A DNA stretch of 43,110 nt. Source: a virus. Taxonomy: Duplodnaviria; Caudoviricetes. The position numbers and the translations under genes are program-made. The stretch is from the IMG/VR virus record IMGVR_UViG_3300043117_000136, positions 1 through 43,110 of that record, one strand, 5' to 3'. Under the pieces are notes generated by a model. It searched no databases and was not told where the DNA came from. It saw only the letters and a list, made by a program, of their open reading frames with translations. Below, in pieces: positions 1 through 43,110 of this stretch; positions within the stretch are counted from its first letter, which is position 1; every line of letters starts with the position of its first letter.

Positions 1-272
1 GCGGAGTGTTTAGGGGGGAGGATGCCGAGTGCCCAGACGAGGACAAGCGGCAAAAAGCGTTAAGAGCAAGATTTTGGGCGGAGGTGGATGATGGCAAAGG
101 GGACACCCAAGCGGGACGGTAGCGGCAGAGGCGAGAGGCGGAACAAGGGGCGCGGTGGATGCAACCCCCCTAAAGACCGGGGTAGGAGATAATGCCTAGC
201 GAGCTTACGCTCAAACAGCGCAAATTTGTTGAGGCGTTTAAGGGCAACGCAACCGAAGCGGCACGGGTCGCA
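1..272 (+). repeat. Direct repeat copy 1 of 39723-39994 (cut by the window start)
   Basis: Manual alignment at offset 39722: identical except ggcagag/ggcaaag and gaggcg/gaagcg; diverges after ...cgggtcgca at 272/39994. Confidence 0.97.
91..192 (+). CDS. Small basic peptide MAKGTPKRDGSGRGERRNKGRGGCNPPKDRGRR (copy of 39813-39914)
   Basis: Manual translation; GGAGG upstream; stop overlaps the next ATG (TAATG). Confidence 0.6.
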   Translation: MAKGTPKRDGSGRGERRNKGRGGCNPPKDRGRR

Positions 273-287
273 AGAAGCCCCCACTAG
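192..287 (+). pseudogene. 5' fragment of the second terminase small subunit, truncated by an IS end
   Basis: First 27 codons encode MPSELTLKQRKFVEAFKGNATEAARVA as at 39914, then RSPH* read from the IS remnant. Confidence 0.9.
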
Positions 288-323
288 AATCGTGGCAACG
301 ATTTAGTGGTGGGAGTATGTCAC
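271..323 (+). mobile_element. Isolated IS200/IS605-family right-end remnant
   Basis: GAAGCCCCCACT-hairpin-GTGGGAGTATGTCAC; same layout as the right end of the TnpB element in this window (GAATCCCC...GGGGAGGACGTCAA). Confidence 0.65.
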
Positions 324-720
324 AAAGGGCGCAATAACTCAAAAAAGGGCGCAAAGTCTAAATTATTGCGCCCTTTTTGTAAGTTACCGTAATTATTCAA
401 GAATCGGCGTTCTCGTTTGTGGCAAAAGGGCGCAATAAAAAACTTTGCGCCCTTTTTGTAAGTTACCGAAATTATTATATTATCTCTTCTTATTTTTATA
501 AAAGGGCGCAATAATGTATAATAATAGTGAATTGGGTAGAGAATATAAAAAAAACGTATATTTTTAAAAATAGAAGTTATAGGGGTAAGGGATTGGTGTT
601 TTTTTGCGCCCTTGCGCCCTTTTGCCCCCTTTTAAGAGGTAAAAATCAATAACAACAAACACTTACACAAGGGCGCGATAATTTAGACTTTGCGCCCTTT
701 TGAAAAACATCGCGCCCTTT
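324..720. repeat. Iteron-like GGGCGC/GCGCCC array around an AT-rich core; origin-like
   Basis: 11 GGGCGC/GCGCCC cores in both orientations; ~41-bp imperfect inverted repeat 343-384 vs 661-701; AT-rich centre ~470-580. Confidence 0.75.
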
Positions 721-795
721 CGATTTTTGCACCAAATTGATGATTTTTGTGGTACTATTGAAGAAAACAAAAAAGGAGTATGTCACCATACCCTC

Positions 796-823
796 TTGAC
801 ATTCCCCGCCCCCGTGGTAGTAT
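796..823 (+). promoter_or_regulatory. Sigma70-type promoter for the virion operon
   Basis: TTGACA(796-801)-16 bp-TAGTAT(818-823) with extended TG. Confidence 0.55.
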
Positions 824-845
824 GTCGGGAGAGGAGTTGAGTATT

Positions 846-1262
846 ATGGCTACGAAAAAAAAGGGCCTCCCCGGACGCCCGACAAAATATAATAAAAAGA
901 TCGAGCAGGATGCGCTTGATTATGTGACGCGGCTTGAGGAATTAGGGCATGTCATCCCGTCACGCGCTGGACTTTGCTGTTACCTCGGTATTGCGAAGTC
1001 TACGAGCTACGAATGGGAGAAGGAACACCCGCGTTTTTCGGACGCTTTGAGGGCGGTAGAGGTGATGCAGGAGCACATGACGCTCAACGGCTCACTTGCG
1101 AATCAGCTTAACTCCACGATTGCAAAACTGGTATTGTCGAATAATCACGGCTATACCGAAAAGAGCGCAGTAGACAATACTTCGTCTGATGGCTCCATGT
1201 CACCCGGCGCAACCCAGGATGAAGTATTAAAAGCAATCGCCGCTAAATATAAAGACGAATGA
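846..1262 (+). CDS. terS: Terminase small subunit (P22 gp3-like DNA packaging protein)
   Basis: GRPTKY motif and HTH-like segment; stop overlaps terL start; start moved from 780 to the ATG after GAGGAG. Confidence 0.85.
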   Translation: MATKKKGLPGRPTKYNKKIEQDALDYVTRLEELGHVIPSRAGLCCYLGIAKSTSYEWEKEHPRFSDALRAVEVMQEHMTLNGSLANQLNSTIAKLVLSNNHGYTEKSAVDNTSSDGSMSPGATQDEVLKAIAAKYKDE

Positions 1263-2650
1263 CCGCGCAAGAGATAGCCGATTGCAGGACAGATTTATTC
1301 ACTTTCACAAAAGTGATGTTCAAGGCACGTAAAGGCATAGCGTTCTCTGAAAACTGGCATCAGGAAAAGATCTGCACCTCGCTTGAGCGTGTGGTTATCG
1401 GCAAGACAAAGCGCCTCATTATCACGATACCGCCACGTTCGGGTAAGACCGAGCTGGCGGTTATCAACTTTATTGCATGGTGCATGGGCAACTTCCCGGA
1501 ATCAGAGTTTATCCATGCGAGTTATTCAAAGCGCCTTGCGACGAACAACACTTACCATGCTCGTGCATTGATCCAGCACGATAAATATGCGGAGATATTT
1601 GGAGCGCCAAAGTTTCGGGGTGATAGCAACGCAAAGGATGAGTTCAGAACTCAACAAGGCGGAGTTGTTTATGCCACAGGCGCAGAAGGAACAATCACCG
1701 GTTACGGCGCTGGTGGCATGGGTGAACGGTTCAAGGGCGCGATAGTCATTGATGATCCGCACAAAGCGGGTGAAGGTAACTCCGAAACCATGCGCGAGAA
1801 TGTGCTGGATTGGTTCAGCACAACGATGGAGAGCAGGAAGAACAGCCCTGACACGCCCATCATTATTATCATGCAGCGCTTGCACAAGCGCGACCTTGCC
1901 GGTTTTCTGTTAGATGGTGGTAACGGTGAAGAATGGGAACACTTGAACATCCCAGCGATAACGGAAGGGGGTGTGTCGTTCTGGAAAAAACAGTTCCCGC
2001 TCGATGATTTGCGCCGCATGGAAAAGGCGAACCGCTACCGCTTCGCCGGGCAGTACATGCAAAGCCCTGCACCGATTGGAGGCGGTATCTTCCGGGATGA
2101 ATGGTGGCAGTTTTATAGCGTGACCCCGCGCATTAAGTATCGCATGATATACGCCGATACCGCGCAAAAAACAAAAGAGCAGAACGATTATTCTGTGTTT
2201 CAATGCTGGGGTAAAGGCAGCGACGGGAAAATATACCTGCTCGATATGATACGCGGGAAGTGGGAATCGCCGCAATTACTCCGGGCAGCCCGCGCGTTCT
2301 GGGATAAGCACAAGGCCTTAAACCGCAAGACGCACGGCACACTGCGCAAGCTGAAACCAGAGGACAAATCAAGCGGAACCGGGTTAATACAGCAGTTGCA
2401 ACAGCAGGGCGTGCCGGTAGAGGGCATACAGCGCAGCATTGACAAGGTAACGCGCGCAATGGACGCGGCCCCGCAGATACAGGCTGGCAATGTGATGTTG
2501 CCGGAATCAGCGCCTTATGTGTCGGACATATTATCAGAGGCTACAGGTTTTCCTAATGCCGCGCATGACGATACGCTTGACCCGCTCATGGATGCGATAG
2601 ACGACATGCTTACGAGTGATACAACCTTCGACTACTCACGCTTACTATAG
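1259..2650 (+). CDS. terL: Terminase large subunit
   Basis: Walker A PPRSGKT, Walker B IVIDD, IMQRLH coupling motif, RNase H-like C-terminus (YADTA...HDDTLD). Confidence 0.96.
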   Translation: MTAQEIADCRTDLFTFTKVMFKARKGIAFSENWHQEKICTSLERVVIGKTKRLIITIPPRSGKTELAVINFIAWCMGNFPESEFIHASYSKRLATNNTYHARALIQHDKYAEIFGAPKFRGDSNAKDEFRTQQGGVVYATGAEGTITGYGAGGMGERFKGAIVIDDPHKAGEGNSETMRENVLDWFSTTMESRKNSPDTPIIIIMQRLHKRDLAGFLLDGGNGEEWEHLNIPAITEGGVSFWKKQFPLDDLRRMEKANRYRFAGQYMQSPAPIGGGIFRDEWWQFYSVTPRIKYRMIYADTAQKTKEQNDYSVFQCWGKGSDGKIYLLDMIRGKWESPQLLRAARAFWDKHKALNRKTHGTLRKLKPEDKSSGTGLIQQLQQQGVPVEGIQRSIDKVTRAMDAAPQIQAGNVMLPESAPYVSDILSEATGFPNAAHDDTLDPLMDAIDDMLTSDTTFDYSRLL

Positions 2651-2659
2651 GCCATCATT

Positions 2660-3925
2660 ATGCACATAGCTCAAAAGTTCGCCGACGGAATTGTCAGCCT
2701 CACAAATAAACTTGCTAATCGGCGCAACGCTCAGGCAAGCAACCGAATGACAAGCACGCGCGTAGACTGGGACGAGTTACGCGCGATTTATCGTTCAGGG
2801 ATGGGGAGCAAGATTATCCGGCTCAAGACAGGCATTGCCCTGAAAGATACGCTACAGTTCGGGAGCGAGTCAGACCGTGAGTTTTATGAAGCACGCTTGC
2901 AACAGCTTGTCAAGGACGCATCTAAATACATGCTTGCCTTCGGCCGTGGGCTTATCGTTATCCATGAGCCTGGAGCCGACTTATCACAGCCGCTAGGCAA
3001 TATCAGCGACTGGAGCCGGGTGCGCTATCATGTGTTCAGCGGCGACATGGTATATGTGCAGTCCGTTGATTATAACCTTGACAGCCCGACATATTTCGAC
3101 CCAAAAGCCTACAGCGTGAGGGGCTTTACCATTCACCCGAGCCGCGCTGTAGACATGAAATATGTGGAGCCGGTAGAGTTCGACGCCCCAGAATACTTCT
3201 TCGGGGGTATCTCTGAGTTTGAGCTGATCCGCAATGAGTTGATAAGCGATCAGGTTGTACAGCGGGCGGTTCCGGCCATTCTTGAAAAGTCCGCAACAAT
3301 CTTCTATAAGATAAAAGGCTTTAAGGAACTGCTGGCCGATAAGCAAGAATCCTCCCTCATTACATACTTCACCAACCTTGAAAACCTGCGCTCAGTGTAT
3401 GGATCTGGCATCGTAGACCAAGAAGACGAGATAGAAGTCCACAATCAAATACTTTCCAACCTGGCCGAGTCCGACATGATAACCTTGCGCCGCCTTGCCA
3501 TGGTGACAGGGCTTCCGCTATCGTGGCTTGTGGGGGAAGCGGCCAAGGGCCTCAACTCCACAGGCGAAGGTGAGCGGCAGGTGTTAATGGAAACTATTAC
3601 TACCCTGCAATCTGATTACCTGCTCAATCCTATCAACATACTTATGCACATGCACGGGCGCGGGAGCGTATCGTTCAAAGAGAACCAGGGAGAACAGCCG
3701 ACCGACAGAATCAGGTACGAGGAGACGGTTATCAAGAACGCCGCACTTCTGTGGCAGATGGGCGAGGATTACACGAAATACTTAGAGGATCACGGCGTGA
3801 CAGAGCAGGACGCTTTCGCGCAGATGTTCGGCAAACCTGACCAGCCGGAGCCGCTACCAGAACCGGAAGCGGCGGAAGTTACGCTTGAATCGTTGTTAAG
3901 TGGTGAAGATGAAACGCGAGGTTAA
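2660..3925 (+). CDS. Portal protein (DUF1073-like)
   Basis: 421 aa after terL; GLPLSWLVGEAAKGLNSTGEGE motif typical of this portal family. Confidence 0.85.
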   Translation: MHIAQKFADGIVSLTNKLANRRNAQASNRMTSTRVDWDELRAIYRSGMGSKIIRLKTGIALKDTLQFGSESDREFYEARLQQLVKDASKYMLAFGRGLIVIHEPGADLSQPLGNISDWSRVRYHVFSGDMVYVQSVDYNLDSPTYFDPKAYSVRGFTIHPSRAVDMKYVEPVEFDAPEYFFGGISEFELIRNELISDQVVQRAVPAILEKSATIFYKIKGFKELLADKQESSLITYFTNLENLRSVYGSGIVDQEDEIEVHNQILSNLAESDMITLRRLAMVTGLPLSWLVGEAAKGLNSTGEGERQVLMETITTLQSDYLLNPINILMHMHGRGSVSFKENQGEQPTDRIRYEETVIKNAALLWQMGEDYTKYLEDHGVTEQDAFAQMFGKPDQPEPLPEPEAAEVTLESLLSGEDETRG

Positions 3926-4751
3926 AGCGCCCAACGGCGCACAACTCAAAGCACCAGAACCTCCGCGCGCAGAGATCCGCGAGTTTGGCAACGCCATTGA
4001 ATATATGGTTGATCAGATGGCGAAGCGCTGGCGCAATCAGGTGTTTGATGAGTTGAATCAGAGCACGGTCAAGAAATTTGCGGACGCGGTATCCATCAAG
4101 GACGCCAGTCAGATAGGCAACTTCGCCCGCGTGTTTCTCCGCATTGCAGACCGAGTGAAGCGTAAGCTGCTCAAACAGTTTGACGATGAACGCCTTGAGG
4201 ATCTTGCAAAGAAATTCACGAGCAAAGTAGACCGTCGCAACCAGAAAGAGTTTTATCGCCGCGCCGAAAAAGCCGTGGGGATCAGCCGCCAGGAGCTTGA
4301 AGCCACCGAAGGGCTGACGTACCAGATAAACGCATATAAGCTGGAGACATACCAGTGGATACGCAAGATGCGCGACGATACCCTCCAGATGTGGACAAGT
4401 CAAACCCTGCGCGATATGGCAGAGGGCAAAGGTCTGCCGGAGATATTGTCTCAGTTTGATGATATGGTGGAGAAGCGCAAAGGCCATGCGAAGATGGTAG
4501 CTCGTACTCAGATAAGCACGTTTAACAGTTTAACGAGTAAGGCGCGGGCGCAGAATCTGGGGATTGAAAGGGCTGTGTGGGTAACGTCCAAAGATGAACG
4601 CGTGAGAGCATGCCACCAGGCGCGAGACGGCAAAGAGTTTGACCTATCCGAGGGGTTGTATAGCTCGTGCGATGGTAAGACCCTGCTGCCTGGGGTGGAT
4701 TATTCTTGCCGTTGCGATTACAGAATGATTGTCCCCGAAATGGAGGAATAA
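3909..4751 (+). CDS. Minor head protein (Mu gpF / SPP1 gp7-like)
   Basis: ARTQ...W.TSKDERVR..H...DG...PG.DY.CRC motif. Confidence 0.9.
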   Translation: MKREVKAPNGAQLKAPEPPRAEIREFGNAIEYMVDQMAKRWRNQVFDELNQSTVKKFADAVSIKDASQIGNFARVFLRIADRVKRKLLKQFDDERLEDLAKKFTSKVDRRNQKEFYRRAEKAVGISRQELEATEGLTYQINAYKLETYQWIRKMRDDTLQMWTSQTLRDMAEGKGLPEILSQFDDMVEKRKGHAKMVARTQISTFNSLTSKARAQNLGIERAVWVTSKDERVRACHQARDGKEFDLSEGLYSSCDGKTLLPGVDYSCRCDYRMIVPEMEE

Positions 4752-4754
4752 ATA

Positions 4755-5357
4755 ATGGCTAACCGCTTCACGAAGTACCTCACAAATCTATTGTCCCGCA
4801 CCGGCCGTATTATTCAGGAAGACGGGAACTCTTTTAATGAGGCTGATTATTTAGCCTTAAAACAACGCGAGGAAATATCGAGCCAGTCATTGCTGGGATA
4901 TGCCTATATTGCATCATGGCGCTCAGAGATCCCAGCCGGAGAAACCCGCGACTTTGTACTTGAGATACCTGCGGGGATTCGCGTTTACTTCCATAGTTGT
5001 TCCCATACCGTTGTAGGAGGGAATCTAGAATGGGAGTTGCGGACGCGCCCGGATGCTGGATATCTGGTTGCAGACACAATAAAAGGCTGGAACGTAGATT
5101 CTGACCTCTATCAAGAATCGCAGGCATCTATTATCGAGGTTGACGGACTAACCACGGGGAGCGAGTTTAGACGCGAGAATATCCTCTACCCGGCGGGAAC
5201 CGGCACAAATGTGACTTCTTCAGTTTATACATCTGCCGATGCCATTCCGCAATATTCTACCAATTCAATCCCGGTTTTGCGTTTGAAAAACGTAAATGCA
5301 GACGCTATGGTAATCGTGGTCGACTTCGTTTGGGCGGAGCGTGAGATTGATGCTTGA
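4755..5357 (+). CDS. Hypothetical protein in the head module
   Basis: 200-aa ORF with GGAGG RBS filling the gap between gpF and the protease. Confidence 0.7.
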   Translation: MANRFTKYLTNLLSRTGRIIQEDGNSFNEADYLALKQREEISSQSLLGYAYIASWRSEIPAGETRDFVLEIPAGIRVYFHSCSHTVVGGNLEWELRTRPDAGYLVADTIKGWNVDSDLYQESQASIIEVDGLTTGSEFRRENILYPAGTGTNVTSSVYTSADAIPQYSTNSIPVLRLKNVNADAMVIVVDFVWAEREIDA

Positions 5358-5382
5358 CAAAAAATTGACGCTACTGTACGAT
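5354..5382 (+). promoter_or_regulatory. Internal promoter upstream of the protease/capsid genes
   Basis: TTGACA(5354-5359)-17 bp-TACGAT(5377-5382). Confidence 0.55.
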
Positions 5383-5414
5383 AGATAATAGTATTCAACC
5401 GCAGAGGTGCATAA

Positions 5415-6614
5415 ATGCCCCAAAAGATTGACGAATGTGTAAAATCTGTTATGGAGTCCGGGAAAACGGAGTCTGAAGCATGGGCTATATGTAAAGCCAA
5501 GTTTCAGGATTCTGCCCCCATTCATAGACAGTTTGCCGACATTGCGACATTCTCCGCATCGGAGCGTACCGCTGTGTCTGTGCGTGATGGTGTGCTTGAA
5601 TATTTGGGTTCAGAGATCGGACTAGAGCCTGCCGATAAGATTTTTACCGTCTACCGCTCCCCGGCCACCATCGCAAATGCTGCATGGGCTATGCAGGGTA
5701 TTCCGCTGACAGATGAGCATGTATCTCTAGATGAGCCTGCACCGGATGGCGGCGGACGCGTTGAGATGTCACAGGTTATCGACCAGGTAGACGAATCCAC
5801 ATACTCCCGCCTTGCTGTACGCAACAAATTGTCCGTTAGCGATCAATTATCCCCAACCCTTGAACAGAAACGCCAGCTATCCCTCGGATATGGTGCAGAC
5901 CTGATACCGCATGACCGCTGGGATTTTGAGCAAGTAGAGATTAAGCCGCATCATCTAGCTGTTGTCCCCGCTGGGCGGTGCGGGAAGTTGTGCAGCTTTT
6001 TAGACAGAAAACCAGATCTATCACAAAAGGAGCCAGAACAGATGGATAAACTACACAAAGCGTTCAAAGACGCGGAAGGCTCGGTAAACCTTGAGCAGAT
6101 CGTGGAGATTGCAACGTCTCTGCCCGAAGCAATCCGCAAGGTGCCCGTTGACCGGCTGCAAGAGCTGATGCCTGCTATGCAGGAGATCATGTCCTATGCT
6201 AAAGAGCAGGGCGCACTCCCGGAAGAGGAAGCCCCCACAGACGAAGGCATGGGAGATGAGGGCATGAAAGAAGGCGAAGAAGAAGACGAGAAGAAATTCT
6301 CTGACGCTGACTTTAAGGACGCACTCGAAAAAGAAAAACAGAAGTTTGCCGACGCTGAAGTAAAGCGTTATGCGCAAGTGGTAAACAAAGCGCGGAACTT
6401 CTTGGATGCTGAATACGATTTCACTGGCAAGACCGCGAATCAGGTAATGCGTGATGCTTTGGCTACCCAGTCAAGCGATCAGTTCGAGGATTCAGAGTTG
6501 CCCGTGGCATTTAAGATGCTGCGTAAACAAAATACCGATTATACACAGTTCGGAGACACCAAGCCCGAAGGCGGTCTTGCTGCCCGGATCAAAGCCGAAA
6601 TTGGGGAGGAATAA
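5415..6614 (+). CDS. Prohead protease/scaffold (DUF2213-like)
   Basis: P.TDEH, LSLGY and HLAVVPAGRCG motifs; acidic scaffold-like C-terminal half. Confidence 0.85.
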   Translation: MPQKIDECVKSVMESGKTESEAWAICKAKFQDSAPIHRQFADIATFSASERTAVSVRDGVLEYLGSEIGLEPADKIFTVYRSPATIANAAWAMQGIPLTDEHVSLDEPAPDGGGRVEMSQVIDQVDESTYSRLAVRNKLSVSDQLSPTLEQKRQLSLGYGADLIPHDRWDFEQVEIKPHHLAVVPAGRCGKLCSFLDRKPDLSQKEPEQMDKLHKAFKDAEGSVNLEQIVEIATSLPEAIRKVPVDRLQELMPAMQEIMSYAKEQGALPEEEAPTDEGMGDEGMKEGEEEDEKKFSDADFKDALEKEKQKFADAEVKRYAQVVNKARNFLDAEYDFTGKTANQVMRDALATQSSDQFEDSELPVAFKMLRKQNTDYTQFGDTKPEGGLAARIKAEIGEE

Positions 6615-6616
6615 TT

Positions 6617-7102
6617 ATGTCTTTTGCAAACACAGTGCTCCAAGACAATCCTGATCTGCCCGCTGGAGAGGTAATTGCAGCCAGCCCGCACAACATTTCA
6701 GCCTTCGAGGTTTTCGAGGACGGACTTATTGAAGGTCGCTTTTGTAAGTTTGATAGCGGCTCCATTGATAACCTGGATTCATCCGCCACGCCGACTATCG
6801 CGGGTATTGTACGCCGTAAAGTAACCGGCGAAGTTAACGCCGTTGGTACTTCGGGCGTGTACAGCGCAGACGGCCCCGAAGTGGATCAGGTTGCCGAGGT
6901 TATCAACTTCGGTTTTGCCACCGTTACCGTGACCGACACCGCCACCCCGGCCAAGTACGGGCAGGTGTATGTATCCAATACAAACGATGCTGATCGCGGC
7001 AAGGCTTCCGACCTTAACACCCTGCTCGAAGTTCCGGGCGTTGTGTTCTGGGAAGAGAAGTCCGATGGCGTGTGGCTCGTTCGCATTAACCAGTATCTCT
7101 AA
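6617..7102 (+). CDS. Head decoration/cement protein
   Basis: 161 aa between protease and capsid; position typical of this module. Confidence 0.7.
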   Translation: MSFANTVLQDNPDLPAGEVIAASPHNISAFEVFEDGLIEGRFCKFDSGSIDNLDSSATPTIAGIVRRKVTGEVNAVGTSGVYSADGPEVDQVAEVINFGFATVTVTDTATPAKYGQVYVSNTNDADRGKASDLNTLLEVPGVVFWEEKSDGVWLVRINQYL

Positions 7103-7121
7103 AAAAGGGAGAGTATAAAAC

Positions 7122-8096
7122 ATGAAACCTGATATCAAGCGTGTACAATCCCTTTACGGGGTTCAATCATTCGACAATGCCGCTGCTTATGCAAAAAAGC
7201 ATTTCAAGGACGAGGGCGGCATTATCCTTGCTCGCAATCTTGAGCATGTCTCAACTGAGATTTTTACCCAAGAGTTTGCAGGGCTTACATTCCTTCAGCA
7301 GGGTATTACTATCAATAACGAGGGCGGGTATGCCACCTCGATCCGTAAGCTGAAGCTTCGCACCGAGGGCGGATTCCGCGAGTCTGGCACCAAGACCAAC
7401 ACCGCTGGCAAAATCACCCTTTCCGGTGAGGATGACAGCATTCCAGTGTTTACCATGGAGGGCGAGTCCGATTGGTCAGAAATTGAGCTGAAGCAGGCAG
7501 AACTTGAGAACATCAACCTGCCAAGCCGGTTTTTTGAAGGCCACGCAGAGCTGTACAATCGCAAGATTGACGAGCTGGGCTTTACCGGGCAGGTGCGCAC
7601 CGATGGCACCCAGAAAACCCTGGGCCTGCTCAACTATGGCTTTACCTCCAACGCAGCGACCAACACCGCTGAGAACCTTACCGGACAAGAGCTTTACGAC
7701 GAGATTGCAGAGCTTATTACTAGTCAGTGGGCGGGTGTTCTGAATGTGGACACATACAAAGCTGATCGCGTGGTAATGCCTGACGATGTATACAACATCG
7801 CATCAACCAAGATCCTCAACAGTGCCGGTTCTGAAATGTCCGTACTCCGGGCGCTCCAGTCCAACTTCCCTGGCGTGACTTTTGGGCTTACCCCCAAGGC
7901 GCAGGACGTTGGCGGCGACTCTATCACCGTGGCATTCAGCTCCAACCGCCGGGCCATGCAGTTCCGTCTGCCGGTTCCGCTGAATATATCCAGTGTGGAT
8001 CAACGGGGGTTTAAGTATTACGTTGAATCATACTTCGGTGTGGCCGGATTGGACGTTATCGAGGACGACGCTGCACAGATTCTGACGGGGCTGTAA
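7122..8096 (+). CDS. Major capsid protein (DUF2184-like, HK97 fold)
   Basis: 324 aa; W...EL..A, G......GLLN and LPVPL segments; gene order. Confidence 0.85.
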   Translation: MKPDIKRVQSLYGVQSFDNAAAYAKKHFKDEGGIILARNLEHVSTEIFTQEFAGLTFLQQGITINNEGGYATSIRKLKLRTEGGFRESGTKTNTAGKITLSGEDDSIPVFTMEGESDWSEIELKQAELENINLPSRFFEGHAELYNRKIDELGFTGQVRTDGTQKTLGLLNYGFTSNAATNTAENLTGQELYDEIAELITSQWAGVLNVDTYKADRVVMPDDVYNIASTKILNSAGSEMSVLRALQSNFPGVTFGLTPKAQDVGGDSITVAFSSNRRAMQFRLPVPLNISSVDQRGFKYYVESYFGVAGLDVIEDDAAQILTGL

Positions 8097-8097
8097 T

Positions 8098-8265
8098 ATG
8101 GAAGATATGCCTGGATTCGAGGAACCGCAGGAAGAACCGAAGCCGAAGAAAACCACACGGCGCAAAAAGGAAGAGGTGAAAATGGAAGATATGCCTGGAT
8201 TCGAGGAACCGCAGGAAGAACCGAAGCCGAAGAAAACCACACGGCGCAAAAAGGAAGAGGTGAAA
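8098..8265 (+). repeat. Perfect 2 x 84-bp in-frame tandem repeat
   Basis: 8098-8181 = 8182-8265. Confidence 0.97.
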
Positions 8266-8412
8266 AACGTCGCTTCCATGCCGTTCAAGGTATATGGCAA
8301 GGTTGTACAGCCGGGGCGCACTTACGCCCCCAGCACTGCGGATAAGAAAGACGAGAAGGCTACACGCCGGATCGAGAACGCAATTAAAAAAGGCTATCTG
8401 GAGAGGGTTTAA
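8098..8412 (+). CDS. Hypothetical protein with a duplicated 28-aa N-terminus
   Basis: ORF between capsid and adaptor genes. Confidence 0.7.
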   Translation: MEDMPGFEEPQEEPKPKKTTRRKKEEVKMEDMPGFEEPQEEPKPKKTTRRKKEEVKNVASMPFKVYGKVVQPGRTYAPSTADKKDEKATRRIENAIKKGYLERV

Positions 8413-34733: not shown

Positions 34734-35144
34734 TTACTCCTTTTCAGTCTCACAGACGAGGGTGTATTCGGGATTAGGCGTAACGGAAACAAGTTTACAA
34801 TTGCCGAGAATTTCCTTAGGAAATTTCTCTGGTGGGCACTCTAGCCATAAATTAAAATGGAGGGGAAGAGGTAAATCTTCTGGAGGATAATAAACGGCAA
34901 TGACTTTTCCGCAAGCATAAAACTTGTTGCCTAGTGAATCGCTCCAGTTGTATTTGGCCTTAAGGATTTCCCGGGCCTTTTGGAGGTCATCGAAGGAATG
35001 AGTTATAAGCCGGTGTCTTTCGGGAGAGAAGATAAACTCTCCGGGAAGGTTATTATACTCAAGAAGAAAGTGTAATTGTTGGGCATCCTGGAGGGTTTGT
35101 TTTGCTTCTTTGATGATTTCCTCGACTGGTCGGTAAGTTTCCAT
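34734..35144 (-). CDS. Hypothetical protein
   Basis: AAGGAGG RBS; 136 aa. Confidence 0.7.
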   Translation of the reverse strand: METYRPVEEIIKEAKQTLQDAQQLHFLLEYNNLPGEFIFSPERHRLITHSFDDLQKAREILKAKYNWSDSLGNKFYACGKVIAVYYPPEDLPLPLHFNLWLECPPEKFPKEILGNCKLVSVTPNPEYTLVCETEKE

Positions 35145-35206
35145 GGTTTTCCTCCTTGTTTGATAAAAAGTTGAAGATATGTAAGGGACCGATACAAAAA
35201 CCCCCT

Positions 35207-35488
35207 TTATCCTTGTGCCATCAGCAAAGCCAAAGCTTTTTCGCGTAACATCATTGCCACGTTCGCAACGTCCACGCTCTCGTTTGTAATACCTACCAGG
35301 CCAGTGAAATCATTTGCCTCGGCGATCTCAATTTCAGTGAACAGTTCGTTAATTTCCTCTGCCAATTTGCACTTCAGTTCGGCCAGGCTCATTTCCAGCC
35401 AATCGCCTTTGTCTATGTTCTTGGGCAAATTCAGCGTTTCCACCATTTTCCGCCCGAAAAACTTTACCTCATTCTCGCCGCGCATCAT
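35207..35488 (-). CDS. MazG-like nucleotide pyrophosphohydrolase-like protein
   Basis: EE..EL...E.VDVAN.AMM motif. Confidence 0.6.
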   Translation of the reverse strand: MMRGENEVKFFGRKMVETLNLPKNIDKGDWLEMSLAELKCKLAEEINELFTEIEIAEANDFTGLVGITNESVDVANVAMMLREKALALLMAQG

Positions 35489-35489
35489 T

Positions 35490-35852
35490 TCAACACCCCC
35501 TGCCTTCCATCGCTAGTTTAATCACCCGCCGCACTCGCTCAAAATCCCAGCGCGAAAAAAATATTACCCCACTATCATTTTTATTTCGGCAATCCATTTC
35601 ATTGTCTAGCCAGCGCAATACCTCAAGCATTTCAGGTGCAGCGGCAATTAAATTTGCATTGGCTTGGTGCTCTCGGTCTCCTATCTCATAATCTGGGTAT
35701 TTGCAAAAATTTACCAATGCAATGTGTTTTACCGGCAAATTCGGCGTTGCAAATGTGTTTATCGCTGTGCGTACATGGCTTGCATCAGCCACCCACGGGC
35801 CAGGTGTGTGTGCAGGATTTTTTTTAACTGGGTTGTTGCTTTTGTTGTTCAT
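35490..35852 (-). CDS. Conserved-type phage early protein
   Basis: HTPGPW...ANANLIAAAPEML motif. Confidence 0.75.
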   Translation of the reverse strand: MNNKSNNPVKKNPAHTPGPWVADASHVRTAINTFATPNLPVKHIALVNFCKYPDYEIGDREHQANANLIAAAPEMLEVLRWLDNEMDCRNKNDSGVIFFSRWDFERVRRVIKLAMEGRGC

Positions 35853-36118
35853 TTCAACACCCCCTGTCTGACCGCCTGTACAACAGTACGGCACACCATT
35901 TCACACTGATCAAACTTTTCGGGGTTCTGGTGGATGAACCGGTGACATGCCATGCAAAGCGGTATTGCGAGGATGTCATCAGCCTTGAGACCGGCACCGC
36001 TAAAATTGCCCACGCCTTTGATGTGATGCGCCTCGGCTTCCGGGAATTCGCACACGCAACAAGGCTGTTTCCGTACCCAATCCAGATATTTTTGCGATCT
36101 CCAACGCACAGTGTTCAT
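35849..36118 (-). CDS. DUF968-like Zn/HNH-type protein
   Basis: KYL.WV..QPC.VC...AHH...K..D...IPLC..CH. Confidence 0.8.
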   Translation of the reverse strand: MNTVRWRSQKYLDWVRKQPCCVCEFPEAEAHHIKGVGNFSGAGLKADDILAIPLCMACHRFIHQNPEKFDQCEMVCRTVVQAVRQGVLK

Positions 36119-36519
36119 AGTTCCCTTTCTCCCGGGACCGGCAAGAATAAGTGGAGCCTGTCAGCACAGAACATTTCAATATTGTCCATGTACTCAGCAA
36201 ATTCCGCCGTGTCCATTTTTGTTGTTGTTTGCCTGATTTTCAGCGCTTGCCCCCCCACCGTGACCACCTTAGTGGGGAGAAAGCGCCCCTTAAAAAACTC
36301 GTGTATGTCCTCCGCGCTGTATATCTGCCCTGTGCTATCTGCTATGTGTAGCCGTATAACGTCCAGGCGCACCCAATACAGCGCGTTTTGTGACAAACTG
36401 CGCTTGCTTTTGTGCGGTCTAATTATTACTTCATGCGGCCCTTCCTCCGGCAACGCTCTGATTAGGTCGCACGCTCTTTCCGCTATTAGTTTGTTGGTTA
36501 TTACAAACTTCTGTTTCAT
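36115..36519 (-). CDS. NinB/Orf-like recombination protein
   Basis: KRSLSQNALYW...HE.FK..FL...TT.M...EF..Y...IE. Confidence 0.8.
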   Translation of the reverse strand: MKQKFVITNKLIAERACDLIRALPEEGPHEVIIRPHKSKRSLSQNALYWVRLDVIRLHIADSTGQIYSAEDIHEFFKGRFLPTKVVTVGGQALKIRQTTTKMDTAEFAEYMDNIEMFCADRLHLFLPVPGEREL

Positions 36520-36655
36520 ACAAAAGCCCTACCAATGCCGGGAAGTCATCCCCGAAATGTTTGACCGCACAGCTTAAACAAATGCTGTGCGTCTCCCCTT
36601 CCTCCCCCCCTTTTTCACCGATCACCTCACCGCACCATGCACAAATTACCTTCAT
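36431..36655 (-). CDS. Small Cys-rich protein
   Basis: CAWC...THSIC..C; ATGA overlap with erf. Confidence 0.6.
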   Translation of the reverse strand: MKVICAWCGEVIGEKGGEEGETHSICLSCAVKHFGDDFPALVGLLYETEVCNNQQTNSGKSVRPNQSVAGGRAA

Positions 36656-37284
36656 GCCGCGCCCTCAAATTTCTTTTTCAGCTCGTCCTTTTTGGCGTTA
36701 AACTGGGTCATTTCCTTTTTGTTGAAATGTTCCCGGGCCATCGGATACCGGTTCTTGTATATTGCGCCGAGGTCTCCAAGGTCCATAGCCCCTTCCATTT
36801 CGGTTATTACGTTTTCAAGCGGGATAAAATCAGGCAAAGGGGGCTTCTGAGTGGGCTTCTGCTCTTTCTTTTTGCCTTCCTCTTCGTGCTGATTTGTCGC
36901 GTCTGCGTCCTTGGCATCGTCAATCAGGAATAGGCCATTGAGAGCGTATTTTCTGGCGTAGCTGGACGCCGCGCCGGTGATCTGGCTTGCGTCCATGCCT
37001 TTTTTGGTTTCGGGTTCCCGGGCATATGCTGACACTTCCACCCCAAAAGCCCCAGCGCGGAAAATGGCATCTGCCTTGACGTATACCAACCCGCCAACCT
37101 CAACAATTGTGTCGGTCAGCGTCAACATAGCCCCGTATTTTGCCAACAGGGGCTTTACTGTTTCAAGAATATCTTCACAACTGCGGTAACTGTACCCCCC
37201 GAATTTATTAAACTGGGATTTCGGTACCTTGAGTTCTTCCTGGATTTTTTGCAATGCGTTTGCGGTTTCTTCTAGTTCGCACAT
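36652..37284 (-). CDS. erf: ERF-family single-strand annealing protein
   Basis: N.FG.Y.YRS.EDI; Q.TGAASSYARKYAL.GLF.IDD.KD.D. Confidence 0.93.
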   Translation of the reverse strand: MCELEETANALQKIQEELKVPKSQFNKFGGYSYRSCEDILETVKPLLAKYGAMLTLTDTIVEVGGLVYVKADAIFRAGAFGVEVSAYAREPETKKGMDASQITGAASSYARKYALNGLFLIDDAKDADATNQHEEEGKKKEQKPTQKPPLPDFIPLENVITEMEGAMDLGDLGAIYKNRYPMAREHFNKKEMTQFNAKKDELKKKFEGAA

Positions 37285-37295
37285 ATCCCCCCCTT

Positions 37296-37781
37296 TTATT
37301 TGATATCAATTCTGGTGTCTTGCACCAACTTGGCCCCTTTGACCTCTTCACCGCCCTTGATGGCGGCGGCTAGGGCAGATTTGTTCAACTGGAATTGTTC
37401 AGGAATAACAGTAAAGTACCTAGCCGGTATTTCCTCCTCATTGTCGATTGCAACCTTAGGCGGGTTTTTTTTGATTTTCACCGTGTGGGAGCCAACTTGA
37501 AGTTCATCCCTTCCCGCCGTCTCCATGGCCCGCTTGAGGTAGCTCTTGATATTGCCAATGCGAGCGTCTGCCGCCTTCCTGTGCGCAGCAATCCGGTTTT
37601 CCTCTTTTTTGCAGTAATCAACAAACGCTTGCAAGCGATCGGAAAAAACGGCTATTCCCTCGGCTTTTGCCTCAAGGGAAGTTGTCAGCTCCCCGAGGGC
37701 CGTTTCAGTTTCTTCCGTCCATTCTTCGGTTTCGAGTATTGACCTGATTTCCGCCGCGATCTCATAGAGTTTTAGTTCCAT
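37296..37781 (-). CDS. Siphovirus Gp157 family protein
   Basis: LYEI, KKNPPKV.I..E..IP and GA.LVQ motifs; start reassigned to 37781. Confidence 0.88.
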   Translation of the reverse strand: MELKLYEIAAEIRSILETEEWTEETETALGELTTSLEAKAEGIAVFSDRLQAFVDYCKKEENRIAAHRKAADARIGNIKSYLKRAMETAGRDELQVGSHTVKIKKNPPKVAIDNEEEIPARYFTVIPEQFQLNKSALAAAIKGGEEVKGAKLVQDTRIDIK

Positions 37782-38010
37782 CGGCTTTCTTTGCCTCCCG
37801 TTTGTATGCGACATAATTGACAAAGCGCGGGGGAGACGTACCAACATACGACGCCCCTTCAGATTTCGGCATGTCATGACAAACTATAAACGTGCCGCCC
37901 GTGCCATCGTTCGATAGTCTGACATAACTTTTGGCTCCGGTTTTGGCCCTGATCTTGTCGCAAAGCTCGGCCACCATGTTCCCCAATTCGATCAACTCTT
38001 GTTCTGTCAT
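37762..38010 (-). CDS. Hypothetical protein, paralogue of 39135-39356
   Basis: MTEQELIELG...KTGAK...DGTGG...CH.MPK shared. Confidence 0.75.
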   Translation of the reverse strand: MTEQELIELGNMVAELCDKIRAKTGAKSYVRLSNDGTGGTFIVCHDMPKSEGASYVGTSPPRFVNYVAYKREAKKADGTKTL

Positions 38011-38231
38011 TTCTCTCCCCTCTCTTTTTGGATTTCTTGCACTATCTCAGCAACGTAGCGCATATTGTCACTAAGCCTTTTGTTTTCTCTCCGTATCTCC
38101 CTCAATTTCTTTTTCCGGGACACCGCTATAGCTCTCATACTCTTTGCCCCCTATTGTTACACCCATTTTCCCGTTTGCCTGGGGGGTTCTGTTACGGTGA
38201 TACCAGTTTATTTCCCCGCGGGTATCCCCGA

Positions 38232-38402
38232 TCATTCCGTCACCTCCAACGCTAGAGCCACCGCTTCCCTGGCCGACTCTGTTCTTTGCTGCATTTCCGT
38301 AGGTATTGCGTATTCTACGGCAACCCACAAAATAAGCCAAACGAGGCCGCCCAGCAGGCAACCGTAAAGAATGCCCTCAAAAGGACTCAAGTTGTTTTTC
38401 AT
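38232..38402 (-). CDS. Small membrane protein (56 aa, not in the ORF track)
   Basis: MKNNLSPFEGILYGCLLGGLVWLILWVAVEY...; AAAGGGGG RBS. Confidence 0.65.
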   Translation of the reverse strand: MKNNLSPFEGILYGCLLGGLVWLILWVAVEYAIPTEMQQRTESAREAVALALEVTE

Positions 38403-38456
38403 GGTTTCCCCCTTTTGCGCCCCTGGCCGTAACCAGGGGCGTTGAAAACGGAATGT

Positions 38457-38744
38457 TTAAAACTCCGTTCCCATCATATTTTCCACGTTTGCCGCGCTTA
38501 TCGCGGAGATTTCGCCACAATCTTTGCAATTTACTATATCTCTTCGCGCCGCTCTTTCGCAGCGCAAGCGGGCGTTTTCTAGCGTTTTGTGGTGCTTAAC
38601 GGCGCTGTAAACGCTGTTCGTGATAATGCTGACGGTCCCCTCAAAAAAAGCACTCATTTCCTCGATTGTCCCATAAATGTAGGTGCCCTCGTTGGAAAAA
38701 CCCCTGGGTGAGTACCACGCTGACCTAAAACCTAATTTTTTCAT
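38457..38744 (-). CDS. Hypothetical early protein
   Basis: Strong RBS inside the repeat spacer. Confidence 0.7.
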   Translation of the reverse strand: MKKLGFRSAWYSPRGFSNEGTYIYGTIEEMSAFFEGTVSIITNSVYSAVKHHKTLENARLRCERAARRDIVNCKDCGEISAISAANVENMMGTEF

Positions 38745-38813
38745 CTCTCCCCCTTTCCCGGCTCCTGTGCCGGGGCTCCGTGCCCCTGGCCGTAACCAGG
38801 GGCGGTTATCACG

Positions 38814-39077
38814 CTAAATTTTTTTATCTATATCTGAAATAGCATTTTTTAATTGCTCCATAGCCTTAGACGATATGCCCGCATCATTGCCTGTTATTGC
38901 AAAAACAATTCTTTCATATATAAGTTTGTTTATTTTTGCTGTTTCGCTATTCAGGTCAGTAATACAAATTCTTCTGACGCTGGCTTCAGTCTGATTTTTA
39001 ATTCTAGCAACTGTTAATGTCGCTAGTTCAGAAATAGCAGCATTAATTTCGTCGGTTATCATATCAGCCAGAAACAT
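38814..39077 (-). CDS. Hypothetical early protein (AT-rich)
   Basis: Strong RBS inside the repeat spacer. Confidence 0.7.
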   Translation of the reverse strand: MFLADMITDEINAAISELATLTVARIKNQTEASVRRICITDLNSETAKINKLIYERIVFAITGNDAGISSKAMEQLKNAISDIDKKI

Positions 39078-39134
39078 AATCTCCCCCTTTCCCGGCTCTC
39101 CGGGGCCGGGACTCCGTGCCCCAAATGGGGCTTG

Positions 39135-39356
39135 TTATTTTTCGCAAACCGCGGCGTAATCAATCAAACGGCGATAGTTCCCTTCGGCAACATATGTTTC
39201 GTGCACCATTTTTGGCATTCCGTGACACGTGACCCACGAACCGCCCGTGCCGTCGTCCGCGAAATCAATAAAGCCCTTAGCTCCCGTTTTCTCTCTGATA
39301 AAATCGGATACCTGCGCAATCCGGTACCCAATTTCAAGCAATTCCCGTTCCGTCAT
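39135..39356 (-). CDS. First gene of the early arm; paralogue of 37762-38010
   Basis: AAGGGGGAGG RBS before ATG 39356. Confidence 0.75.
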   Translation of the reverse strand: MTERELLEIGYRIAQVSDFIREKTGAKGFIDFADDGTGGSWVTCHGMPKMVHETYVAEGNYRRLIDYAAVCEK

Positions 39357-39408
39357 AACCTCCCCCTTCCCCGGCTCCAGTGCCGGGTTTGTTGTTTGTG
39401 TTGTATAG

Positions 39409-39436
39409 ATAATAACACATTGCGGTAATGTGTCAA
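39409..39436 (-). promoter_or_regulatory. Leftward early promoter with a palindromic operator
   Basis: TTGACA-16-TATTAT; ACACATT-N5-AATGTGT at 39415-39433. Confidence 0.7.
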
Positions 39437-39480
39437 GAAGAAAATGAAGAATGAACAAAAAAAATGAATAAAAAAATATC

Positions 39481-39509
39481 TGGACAAAATAAAAAGCCTG
39501 TAATATAAT
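39481..39509 (+). promoter_or_regulatory. Rightward promoter
   Basis: TGGACA-17-TATAAT. Confidence 0.65.
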
Positions 39510-39603
39510 GTTGGCTAATCTTACAATTGTCTAAAAAGCACGAAACCGGCTCAACGGGGTAACCCGCTGGGCTTTTTTAGTTATACGGCCCTGTGTGGGC
39601 TGG

Positions 39604-39642
39604 CCCTGGTAGGTTTCTCTCCTCTCCCTGCCAGGGTTTTTT
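39604..39642 (+). terminator. Intrinsic terminator with a pyrimidine (anti-SD-like) loop
   Basis: CCCTGGTAGG/CCTGCCAGGG stem, loop TTTCTCTCCTCTC, T6; an earlier hairpin plus T-run at ~39548-39578. Confidence 0.65.
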
Positions 39643-39658
39643 ATTAAGGGGCGTGTGT

Positions 39659-39844
39659 ATGGCATGTAATCGTGATCGTTGCTGTGCTGCATGCCCTGAG
39701 CGTTGGCGATGTAGCCAAGCATGCGGAGTGTTTAGGGGGGAGGATGCCGAGTGCCCAGACGAGGACAAGCGGCAAAAAGCGTTAAGAGCAAGATTTTGGG
39801 CGGAGGTGGATGATGGCAAAGGGGACACCCAAGCGGGACGGTAG
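39659..39844 (+). CDS. Small Cys-rich protein
   Basis: MACNRDRCCAACPERWRC...; AAGGGG RBS. Confidence 0.55.
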   Translation: MACNRDRCCAACPERWRCSQACGVFRGEDAECPDEDKRQKALRARFWAEVDDGKGDTQAGR

Positions 39845-39994
39845 CGGCAAAGGCGAGAGGCGGAACAAGGGGCGCGGTGGATGCAACCCCCCTAAAGACC
39901 GGGGTAGGAGATAATGCCTAGCGAGCTTACGCTCAAACAGCGCAAATTTGTTGAAGCGTTTAAGGGCAACGCAACCGAAGCGGCACGGGTCGCA
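39723..39994 (+). repeat. Direct repeat copy 2 of 1-272
   Basis: See 1-272. Confidence 0.97.
39813..39914 (+). CDS. Small basic peptide MAKGTPKRDGSGKGERRNKGRGGCNPPKDRGRR
   Basis: GGAGG RBS; stop overlaps the terS ATG. Confidence 0.6.
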   Translation: MAKGTPKRDGSGKGERRNKGRGGCNPPKDRGRR

Positions 39995-40327
39995 GGGTAT
40001 AAGGGCAATGATGTGACATTGGCCGCTGTTGGTGCCGAGAACCTCAGAAAGCCTCAGATACTAGAGGCTATTCGGCAGCGCAACGCAGGAGAGCAAAAGA
40101 AGCGGATAGCGACGAGGGAGGACCGGCAAGCGTTTTGGACAGGCATTATGCGAGATGAAGCCAAGGAGTTGCGCGACCGCCTCAAAGCGTCCGAGTTGCT
40201 GGGCAAAAGTGAGGCCGACTTTATCGAGCGCAGGGAGGTAAGCGGCCCCAAGGGCGGGCCCATCCAGACCGCTACGATGGATGTCCAGGCTCTGGAGGCA
40301 GCGATTGGAGCCGAAGGGACCGAATAA
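39914..40327 (+). CDS. terS: Second terminase small subunit
   Basis: LT.KQ.KFV...GNATEAAR.AGY...ENLRKP.I...DRLKASELLGK. Confidence 0.92.
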   Translation: MPSELTLKQRKFVEAFKGNATEAARVAGYKGNDVTLAAVGAENLRKPQILEAIRQRNAGEQKKRIATREDRQAFWTGIMRDEAKELRDRLKASELLGKSEADFIERREVSGPKGGPIQTATMDVQALEAAIGAEGTE

Positions 40328-41942
40328 GGAGTACGCGCGGCAGGCTATAGAGTACCTGCAGGGAGCAACCTACAAGGGAGCGCTCAAGGTCTACTTAGCC
40401 GTTGCGACGGACCCCCACCTTGATGATGGCGTGCTGGCCGAGATCGGGAAGGCAGACCGGTATTTTCTCTTAACCCAACTGCTGAGGCGCAAGGACGCGC
40501 TCCATCCGTGGCTGTATGAGCGCTGCCGGGAGGTGGAAGCCGACCCCGATAACCATCTGGACCTGTGGGCTAGGGAGCACTACAAGAGCACGATCATTAC
40601 GTTTGCCGGCTGCATTCAGGAAATATTGAGGGACCCGGAAATAACAATCGGGATATTTAGCCATACCCGCCCAATCGCTAAAGCGTTTCTCTATCAAATT
40701 CAGGGAGAGCTGCAAAACAACGATACGCTGATACGGCTATATCCTGACGTATTATGGGCAGACCCACGCAAAGAGGCGCCTACCTGGAGCCTGGACAGCG
40801 GCATAGTCGTAAGAAGGACCGGGAACCCGAAAGAGAAAACAATTGAGGCGTGGGGGCTTGTAGATGGGCAACCGGTTTCAAAGCATTTCCGGCTGATGGT
40901 CTACGATGACGTCGTGACGTTGACGTCTGTTGGCTCTCCCAACATGATCTTAAAGACCACTGAGGCGTGGGAGCTGTCGCGGAACCTCAGCGCGCAGAAC
41001 GGGGCGGAAAGCAGGCGCACTTGGTATATCGGCACTCGATATAATTTAGCCGACACATATCGTGTGATGCTAGACCGCAGGGTGGCAATTCCCCGCCTTT
41101 ACCCTGCAACCGATGACGGAACGCCAGACGGCAAGCCAGTTCTTTTGAGTCCGGCCGATTGGGACGAAAAAAAGACGGAGTCTAGCACATACGTTATTGC
41201 TTGTCAAATGTTGCAAAACCCAATAGCGGGCAGCGAGCAAGAGTTCAAACCGGAGTGGTTGCGGCGGTGGGAGGTAAGACCGGAGACCCTCAACGTTGCG
41301 ATTGTGGTTGACCCCGCTAACAGCACAAAAAAGGGGAGCTGCAACACTGCCATGGCGGTGCTTGGCGTGGACAGCGCAGGCAATAAATACCTTCTCGACG
41401 GGGCCTTGCACAAGATGACCCTTGCCGAGCGGTGGACCATGCTTAAAGGCTTGCGGTCAAAATGGATACAGCAACCGGGCATACAGACCGTGACGGTAGG
41501 GTATGAGCGGTACGGGATGCAGGCCGACATTGACCACTTTAACGAGATGATGCGGCTCGAGAAGAGCTTTTTCCCTATCGAGGAGGTTTCGTGGGTGCGC
41601 GATGGGGAGAACGCAAAGGATGACCGCATCAGGCGTCTGGTCCCCGATCACCAGAATTGGCGGTTTTTTTATCCTTACGACGGCCCGGCAACCTCGACAA
41701 TGCGCGAAGCCGAGAGCACGCACAGGGGGCACCTAGTCGCGAAGCCCATCAAAAGGAAGAACGCAGAGGGGCGGCTATACGACCTGGTTGAGTGGTTCGT
41801 GGCCAATGAGTACTTGTTTTTCCCTGCAACCACTGCCAAGGATTTTTTGGATGCCATGAGCCGTATCTACGATCTGGACATCCAGCCGCCGGTGATCATG
41901 AGCGAGAGGGACGTTTTACCGGAATACGCCGGGGATTTTTGA
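40281..41942 (+). CDS. terL: Second terminase large subunit (different family from 1259-2650)
   Basis: Walker A variant AREHYKST, Walker B VYDDVV, IGTRY, nuclease VDPA; TTG at 40305 after GGAGG may be the real start. Confidence 0.9.
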   Translation: MSRLWRQRLEPKGPNKEYARQAIEYLQGATYKGALKVYLAVATDPHLDDGVLAEIGKADRYFLLTQLLRRKDALHPWLYERCREVEADPDNHLDLWAREHYKSTIITFAGCIQEILRDPEITIGIFSHTRPIAKAFLYQIQGELQNNDTLIRLYPDVLWADPRKEAPTWSLDSGIVVRRTGNPKEKTIEAWGLVDGQPVSKHFRLMVYDDVVTLTSVGSPNMILKTTEAWELSRNLSAQNGAESRRTWYIGTRYNLADTYRVMLDRRVAIPRLYPATDDGTPDGKPVLLSPADWDEKKTESSTYVIACQMLQNPIAGSEQEFKPEWLRRWEVRPETLNVAIVVDPANSTKKGSCNTAMAVLGVDSAGNKYLLDGALHKMTLAERWTMLKGLRSKWIQQPGIQTVTVGYERYGMQADIDHFNEMMRLEKSFFPIEEVSWVRDGENAKDDRIRRLVPDHQNWRFFYPYDGPATSTMREAESTHRGHLVAKPIKRKNAEGRLYDLVEWFVANEYLFFPATTAKDFLDAMSRIYDLDIQPPVIMSERDVLPEYAGDF

Positions 41943-42043
41943 TTTTGTACCATATATGGAAGTGGTTAAAATCACAGGTGTTAAATGCGTTTTCTCCCGA
42001 GGGCGGATACCATGTCCCATACCAAATATGGTAAAGGTGATTT

Positions 42044-42244
42044 ATGAGTCGGCAACTAACGTGGTTAGCGCAGGTCCTAAGCGCCGACCCTGATCATTAC
42101 AAGAAAGATTGCGCTTACAAGTTCTCCAACGGGCGGCGGTTTGAGTCGGCAGACGCTAACAGGACGTGGGCGTATGATGACGACCTACCAACGGGCGGTT
42201 CGTATATTGTCGATGAGAGCGGCAACGCGATTGTTTGGGAGTAG
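42044..42244 (+). CDS. Hypothetical protein
   Basis: AAGGTG RBS; fits the operon. Confidence 0.6.
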   Translation: MSRQLTWLAQVLSADPDHYKKDCAYKFSNGRRFESADANRTWAYDDDLPTGGSYIVDESGNAIVWE

Positions 42245-42251
42245 CTGGGAT

Positions 42252-42602
42252 ATGATGGTAAACTGGACTTTCGACGGAACGCCGAGCTTAGATGAGATTG
42301 ACATGGCAAGGCGGATACATGACAAGCTGGCGCAGTGCTACCCGGGGCATGTGTGGGGCGTTAACGTGGACGCGACCGGCGGAATTGTGGATATTCGCAA
42401 TTTTGGCGTATCGTACGGATATGGTTACAGGCTTTTGTTGACTACTGTCTACAGTGACCCCGGCTTGCGGTGCGTTGTCATGGCCGGAGGTGAAATTCTA
42501 GAGCGCGCCAGGCTGGCAAGGGGCGTGTCCGACGGTAGTCAAGCGGTTCATATCGATGGCGTACCGGACAAACATCAGCCCATAGGCGGTATTATTCAAT
42601 GA
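42252..42602 (+). CDS. Hypothetical protein between terL and portal
   Basis: YPGH.W.V...AGGEILERA.L.RG; ATGA overlap with the next gene. Confidence 0.7.
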   Translation: MMVNWTFDGTPSLDEIDMARRIHDKLAQCYPGHVWGVNVDATGGIVDIRNFGVSYGYGYRLLLTTVYSDPGLRCVVMAGGEILERARLARGVSDGSQAVHIDGVPDKHQPIGGIIQ

Positions 42603-43110
42603 CCGAAACCGGCAAAAACAATATCTGGTTGCAGCGTGCCAAAAGCGCTTACGATTCCTCGACCTCCTACATAGACAACAACTACAGGGAGCGTTGGGAG
42701 GATAACCTGCGGCATTTCCAGAACAGGCACCACGGAGAGAGCAAGTATTACAAGGACTCGTACAAGTACCGTTCAAAGATATTCCGTCCTAAAACCCGGT
42801 CAGCAGTAAGGAGCAACGAAGCTGCAGCGATGGCGGCGTTTTTCGGCAACATGGATGTAGTTGACGCCGAGGCGATGAACACAGACGATATCAACCAGGT
42901 TGCGAGCGCAGAGGTTGCTAAAGCCCTTCTTAACTACCGCCTGCAACATACGATACCCTGGTTTATGCTGTGCATTGGCGCAGTCCAGGAAGCGCAGGTT
43001 TACGGCGTTGTTTGCAGCTATCAAAAGTGGATTTACGAGGAAAAGATCACCCACGTGGAAATGCCCGTCTTGGGGATGGATGGGCAACAGCTTATTGACG
43101 ATCGCACCGG
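42599..43110 (+). CDS. Portal protein, podovirus-type (5' part; runs off the window)
   Basis: Manual translation MTETGKNNIWLQRAK...YRSKIFRPKTRSAVR...ALLNYRL...; open to the window end; follows terL. Confidence 0.75.
   Translation, partial: MTETGKNNIWLQRAKSAYDSSTSYIDNNYRERWEDNLRHFQNRHHGESKYYKDSYKYRSKIFRPKTRSAVRSNEAAAMAAFFGNMDVVDAEAMNTDDINQVASAEVAKALLNYRLQHTIPWFMLCIGAVQEAQVYGVVCSYQKWIYEEKITHVEMPVLGMDGQQLIDDRT

Follow-up and report, generated by a model that had tools for sequence, protein, structure and literature searches.

The window analysed here is the whole 43,110-nt stretch of the virus record IMGVR_UViG_3300043117_000136 (Duplodnaviria; Caudoviricetes). It holds one early gene arm, assigned to a phage B, and two late modules, a myovirus-type one (A) on the left and the start of a podovirus-type one on the right, together with a fragment of a third phage (C) and remnants of insertion sequences (IS). 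Its features are the following:

1-272, plus strand: left copy of a shared stretch, with terS-B codons 1-27 at 192-272
260-272, plus strand: 13-nt word common to terS-B (codons 23-27) and the tail of the IS tnpB gene; proposed crossover site
260-323, plus strand: right end of an IS200/IS605-family element, with a hairpin (z -4.3)
324-720, no strand assigned: AT-rich, with a short motif that occurs 11 times, in both orientations
780-19555, plus strand: XM1/VBM1/Athena1-like module (TerS, TerL, portal, protease, capsid, neck, sheath, tube, tape measure, baseplate)
19899-22077, plus strand: two tandem Mtd-like receptor-binding genes, with variable 3' ends like those made by diversity-generating retroelements (DGR)
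22105-22877, plus strand: small hydrophobic open reading frames (ORFs), putatively holin/spanin-like
23026-23643, minus strand: SLT transglycosylase, preceded by the 3'-terminal codons of a DUF551-type gene
23644-24731, minus strand: fragment of phage C, comprising the tail of a gene for a Gp2.5-like single-stranded DNA-binding protein (SSB), one gene of 168 aa, and a beta-clamp-like gene interrupted at 23644
24732-26045, minus strand: mobile cassette, with a 56-aa ORF, an MT-A70 methyltransferase and an IS607-type serine recombinase truncated at 24731
26046-39722, minus strand: early arm of phage B (ThyX, replication initiator, SSB, RNA ligase, NinB, ERF, Gam-like)
27819-29164: solo IS605-type tnpB insert, missing from the arm of metagenome runs X2 and X4
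31268-31403: iterons that accompany the replication initiator
39723-39994, plus strand: right copy of the shared stretch, carrying the alleles of the minor phage
39914-43110, plus strand: start of the podovirus-type late module (TerS-B, TerL-B, portal), at 9.8x in run X1

As the initial annotation had described, the two copies of the shared stretch were identical except for two single-nucleotide polymorphisms (SNPs), at repeat positions 128 and 233. In the right copy, terS-B is an intact ORF of 137 aa (39914-40327, Terminase_2) that leads to TerL-B and a different, SU10-type portal; in the left copy, its ORF ends four residues past codon 27 and is followed by a full myovirus module with its own TerS and TerL from 780. 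This part of the description was also borne out: the TerL of the myovirus module and TerL-B are 24% identical over 183 aa, and the portals of the two late modules gave no significant alignment to each other. The labels of myovirus and podovirus given to the two modules were supported by capsid, neck and sheath matches.

Contigs from 6 of the 24 listed metagenome runs were compared with the window; for X2 and X4 the comparison covered the window outside 1-20000, and for X5 and X19 it covered 1-20000 only. X1, labelled an oil field metagenome, holds 0.97 of 20500-29500, and the other listed runs hold at most 0.30. In X1, one 7301-nt contig (39.8x) spans 32694-39994 with the left-copy alleles, and has exits both to an 81-nt contig (243-323, 52.1x) and to the B late module (9.8x). 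These exits indicate that base 1 and the IS end do follow on from position 39722, in support of the proposed closure of 1-39722 into a genome of ~39.7 kb. A second contig of 2944 nt (21909-24852, 37.9x) passes 24731 by 121 nt with zero differences, and each of the two joints (272/273 and 24731) lies inside a single contig. The depth of the myovirus A block in X1 was 34.6-36.5x, with arm pieces exclusive to the major form at 27.8-32.9x, pieces common to both forms at 37.5-42.8x, and the two joints of the minor arm form at 7.1x and 10.9x.

The minor arm form of X1 is the arm found in X2 and X4, where it was recovered at 13.5x and 11.7x, respectively, with the B late module at 14.6x and 14.2x and with 23111-24444 at 0.2-3.6x; the arm pieces of these runs differ from the window by 0-53 positions. 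The matching depth of arm and B late module in both runs indicates that the arm is native to the podovirus lineage, which is the direction of grafting that had been proposed, and the B late module was found without the A block in X2, X4 and X5. The sibling's arm differs from that of the hybrid in several blocks of about 570-1350 nt. Therefore, the podovirus of the same sample is related to the donor but is not itself the donor, so that of the earlier pairing of "hybrid and parent" the shared arm stands and the parentage does not.

The A block at 35x versus the second late module at 9.8x in X1, together with the pairing in X2 and X4, makes the window most likely an assembly walk and not a tandem of hybrid and parent; the other option of the initial annotation, an assembly path through two co-occurring phages with a common early arm, was thus the one supported. 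We consider it quite probable that this walk goes round a likely circular mosaic of 39,722 bp (1-39722) and then into a rarer podovirus, and that the mosaic combines a podovirus arm with an intact XM1-like module, with virions predicted to be contractile-tailed. In a de Bruijn graph with k=127, the two edges of a branch are common over 127 bases and diverge at the next one. The first SNP, at base 128, and the start of a separate record (L001) at the same base as the repeat of the window fit such a branch, and the first 127 bases of the window are likely to be an assembly-graph overlap. The contig would begin on the hybrid edge, circle once and exit by the podovirus edge, and the differences between the window and the X1 arm contig at 34751 and 37263 are as expected of a mixed assembly path. 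A natural 272-bp terminal repeat was ruled out, as no break is present at 39723 in X1, and so was a hybrid-specific origin of the left-copy alleles, both of which also precede an intact terS-B in X2 and X5.

The myovirus module is full length and colinear with Athena1, to which 22 ORFs match in the same order and with similar lengths. The DUF3383 sheath (which matches PDB 7KH1), tape measure, Baseplate J, DUF2612 and XM1-type capsid are all present in order, and the capsid is 77-79% identical to eight Vibrio phage records of the XM1/VBM1/Athena1 group. Whole genomes of this group measure 37.1-39.8 kb, so the 39.7 kb of the hybrid fit its capsid group. Positions 806-17964 are 100% identical to G001, which holds only that stretch, and a promoter-like site was found at the A terminase (796-823).

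At the left joint, the IS sequence (260-323) is 97% identical to G002/L191, 12 of the 13 positions of the common word being identical in L191; an X5 contig of the IS at 268x fits 251-308 with 3 differences. In L190, a 78% match to the IS end sits after tnpB and beside a Y1 tnpA. The initial annotation had placed an IS joint at 272/273 and had terS cut by an IS end. IS sequence does adjoin terS, but it starts at 260 and not at 273. Moreover, insertion of an IS200/IS605 element would set an element end against its target gene, and what abuts terS-B, within the common word, is IS interior. This arrangement points to recombination and not to transposon insertion. Just outside the right end of the IS, where the guide of TnpB would lie, positions 324-343 match the repeated motif of 324-720.

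Whereas the whole of 324-24731 had been ascribed to phage A, its last part (23644-24731) matches a third, PolA-type phage. At 23644, the beta-clamp-like gene is fused to the DUF551-type tail (the DUF551 match, E 0.009, is below the family cut-off). Over 24478-23644 the identity to L165 is 95%, and a PolA gene comes next in L165; L171 shows the same gene order as the C fragment along with a Mu-like baseplate; and X3 contains the C fragment at 7-8x, with no coverage of 1-20000. These three matches identify 23644-24731 as the contribution of a third donor.

The boundary at 24731, described earlier as a GC-rich remnant against a truncated IS607 tnpA, was confirmed, with 81% GC in 24601-24700 and tnpA cut after residue 184 of 213. 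The reading of this tnpA as an IS scar held only as to the truncated IS607-type gene, which belongs to a methylase-recombinase cassette of other phages. The cassette is present in five other viral loci (L085, L089, L090, L115 and L118), none of which gave a match to TnpB, and the order tnpA-then-tnpB is absent from the ORF list of L085. It is multi-copy in the sample, with bins at 126-147x in X1. Between the window and L085, identity is 99-100% over 25800-24731 and 67-86% above that; this step allows a crossover inside the cassette, which would make 24731 an older scar. GG occurs both at the 24731 joint and at the left edge of the cassette, and IS607 inserts at GG (PMC6188088), which weakly suggests a target trace of IS607. 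A single IS607 split around the A block was ruled out, as the remnants belong to two different families and have opposite orientations. As separate observations, the cassette is at high copy in X1-X4, and its left edge is conserved among loci including L122, with an altered arrangement in L086.

A mechanism can be proposed from these joints. A podovirus of the B lineage would have infected a cell that contained an IS-scarred myovirus element, with the C fragment already part of it; this element was probably resident, because transposases are reported as rare in virulent phages (PMC8136500). The first crossover would have taken place in the 13-22 nt common to terS-B and the IS605 tail, with single-strand annealing by ERF/NinB as its likely agent, and the second likely in or at the methylase-recombinase cassette. 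The hybrid would thereby retain the origin and divergent promoters of B, and the terminase, head and tail of A. That a wild podovirus turned in this way into an infectious myovirus, its entire virion module being exchanged through mobile-element homology (the IS605 tail and the methylase-recombinase cassette), and that the product is a three-donor hybrid present at ~3:1 over its sibling with both joints resolved to the base, is put forward tentatively, with a probability somewhat short of even.

Several observations weigh against the hybrid phage. All the compared runs are assembled contigs and not reads, X1 is possibly the window's own data, and most of 20500-29500 was found in only 1 of the 24 listed runs. 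The 64-nt IS end and ~960 nt of the multi-copy cassette (24853-25813) are unbridged by contigs, and at least four exits lead out of the IS end in X1. The 13-nt word is shorter than the 23-27 bp quoted as the minimum for Red-beta in PMC3945230. A parent A with its own arm was not found, as the metagenome contigs contained TerS-A in three distant loci and the SLT gene in none. The suggested coverage check in X1 held approximately, the sum not being exact: the A block and the B late module add up to 44-48x, about 5x of depth above the shared arm (37.5-42.8x). The A depth is also about 5x above that of the hybrid-only arm pieces, the crossing of the cassette is unphased at 126-147x, and three scars that interrupt genes, together with the two IS remnants and the loss of the DGR machinery, resemble prophage decay.

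These last three points are those expected if the mosaic were real DNA but resident and non-infectious, that is, a prophage cluster or a cointegrate flanked by two copies of the cassette within a chromosome or plasmid, and collapsed to a circle in the graph. This explanation is unlikely, although it fares best among the alternatives. The structural genes are all full length and colinear, the origin, terminase and lysis-like genes are retained, the length fits the capsid group, and no integrase match or host genes were found in the window. A pure misassembly, in which separate phages A and B were joined via shared IS and cassette repeats, would account for the contact of both joints with multi-copy elements and for the exits of the IS end. 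It is very improbable, given that a second assembly has 243-323 and 21909-24852 as single contigs, that the joint is the sole listed exit for ~30x of the arm depth, and that k, inferred as 127, exceeds the 64-nt repeat in length. A single molecule in which hybrid and parent lie in tandem, or a genome with both terminase sets as stable parts, is hardly credible despite the contig being a single record, with 35x against 9.8x, the B late module without the A block in X2, X4 and X5, and both structural sets together in none of the 291 fetched loci.

The likely mosaic has a precedent in laboratory hybrids. Hybrids with the early region of P22 and the virion genes of Fels-1 are known as the P221 type (PMC10461980). 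In them, as here, a podovirus early region is joined to the virion genes of a resident long-tailed phage; the differences here are the contractile tail, the environmental origin, the third donor and the joint in an IS tail. Myovirus hybrids of P22 and Fels-2 are also known. Rad52-like exchange between phages and defective prophages, as treated in PMC3945230, shares with this case the ERF and NinB/Orf of the arm, a partner resembling an IS-scarred prophage, and short imperfect homology. However, the substrates tested there measured hundreds of bases, whereas the 13-22 nt of this case only reach the quoted minimum or fall under it, and its partners lack structural homology. XM1, VBM1 and Athena1 are alike in capsid (77-79%), gene order, sheath and genome size, and differ in TerL (29% to Athena1), in the Mtd-like fibres and in the early arm; their module type is already paired with different arms in Athena1 (RecT, O-like) and L028 (AAA_24 ATPase, primase). 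The podovirus side is distantly related to the Vibrio phage 1.232.O/D279 group and to SU10/P22-type necks (portal 41%, capsid 51%, Ad3/Hc3 neck). The cassette shares with the IS607 family a TnpA with helix-turn-helix (HTH) and serine-recombinase domains, but carries MT-A70, has no TnpB match in the five related loci, and has its joint inside tnpA rather than at the end of an element.

The literature searched, of which coverage was partial, contained no description of this phage. The mosaic is probably a natural example of the particle-type swap known from laboratory hybrids, distinguished by its fresh joints and its co-occurring sibling. According to PMC3945230, it is a matter of debate whether unrelated phages exchange whole modules through short homology or without any homology. 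In old mosaics the joints are gone; the fresh joints of this case, the sibling in the same sample and the 13-nt IS-tail word at one joint make the mechanism testable. In addition, a record rated complete but with two terminases can represent two genomes, and classification by capsid or terminase would separate near-identical replicons.

Regarding the remaining features of the A side, the stretch 324-720 may be the post-primase origin-like region of the myovirus donor, by analogy with the similar layout 3' of the primase in the A-module relative L028; no sequence match to it was found. The tandem Mtd-like genes (within 19854-22077) are 86.5% identical to each other, and 11 of 13 differences in their variable repeat fall at codon positions 1-2, versus 33 of 131 elsewhere. 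No RVT_1 match to a DGR reverse transcriptase was detected in the window, nor a template repeat, only the two copies of the variable repeat being present. A near-identical Mtd-like fibre gene (P0002) occurs in another contig of 43,960 bp, which was rejected as parent A because only this fibre is common, and not TerL or the capsid. The holin/spanin-like assignment of the ORFs in 22105-22877 is suggested by their sequence, with no family match in the profile search. A near-perfect 84-nt tandem duplication lies at 8095-8266, within the 104-aa gene after the capsid, and an Rfam int-alpA match (50.2 bits) at 12038-12105, between the tube and chaperone genes.

The podovirus late module continues in other loci. 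L001, identical to 39723-43110, L002 and L200 go on with scaffold, capsid, SU10 adaptor, Hc3 closure and DNA-ejection genes, the capsid of L200 being 99% identical to that of L002; the type 3 neck order (adaptor, Hc3 and DNA-ejection genes after the capsid) is present in L200, of which 10 kb were covered. No close cultured relative of phage B was found in the searched phage collection, no relatives of portal-B or the initiator in genome contigs, and no prophage of A or B in 233 genomes of the order of G002, only short or single-gene matches. The presence of the IS end in a metagenome-assembled genome of Desulfuromonadaceae is only a hint to the host. A host assignment via the CRISPR repeat of X2 was discarded, as the repeat is in five unrelated genomes and the best window matches are 14-18 nt. 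In X2 contigs, CRISPR repeats adjoin matches to 29908-29943 and about 39690-39723; the former target lies inside a 571-nt block of the hybrid's arm that is missing from the phage B of X2 itself.

In the early arm, the replication initiator is O-like, no profile match to an integrase or repressor was found, and divergent promoter-like sites are present at 39409-39509. Upstream of the initiator (31631-32688) are three additional short ORFs similar to its N-terminal HTH, and 672 nt of these are skipped in X2 and X4. Short repeats are found between the first early genes (38419-39387), where 673 nt are skipped in the same two runs, and the arm also contains two similar small ORFs, at 39135-39458 and 37762-38010.

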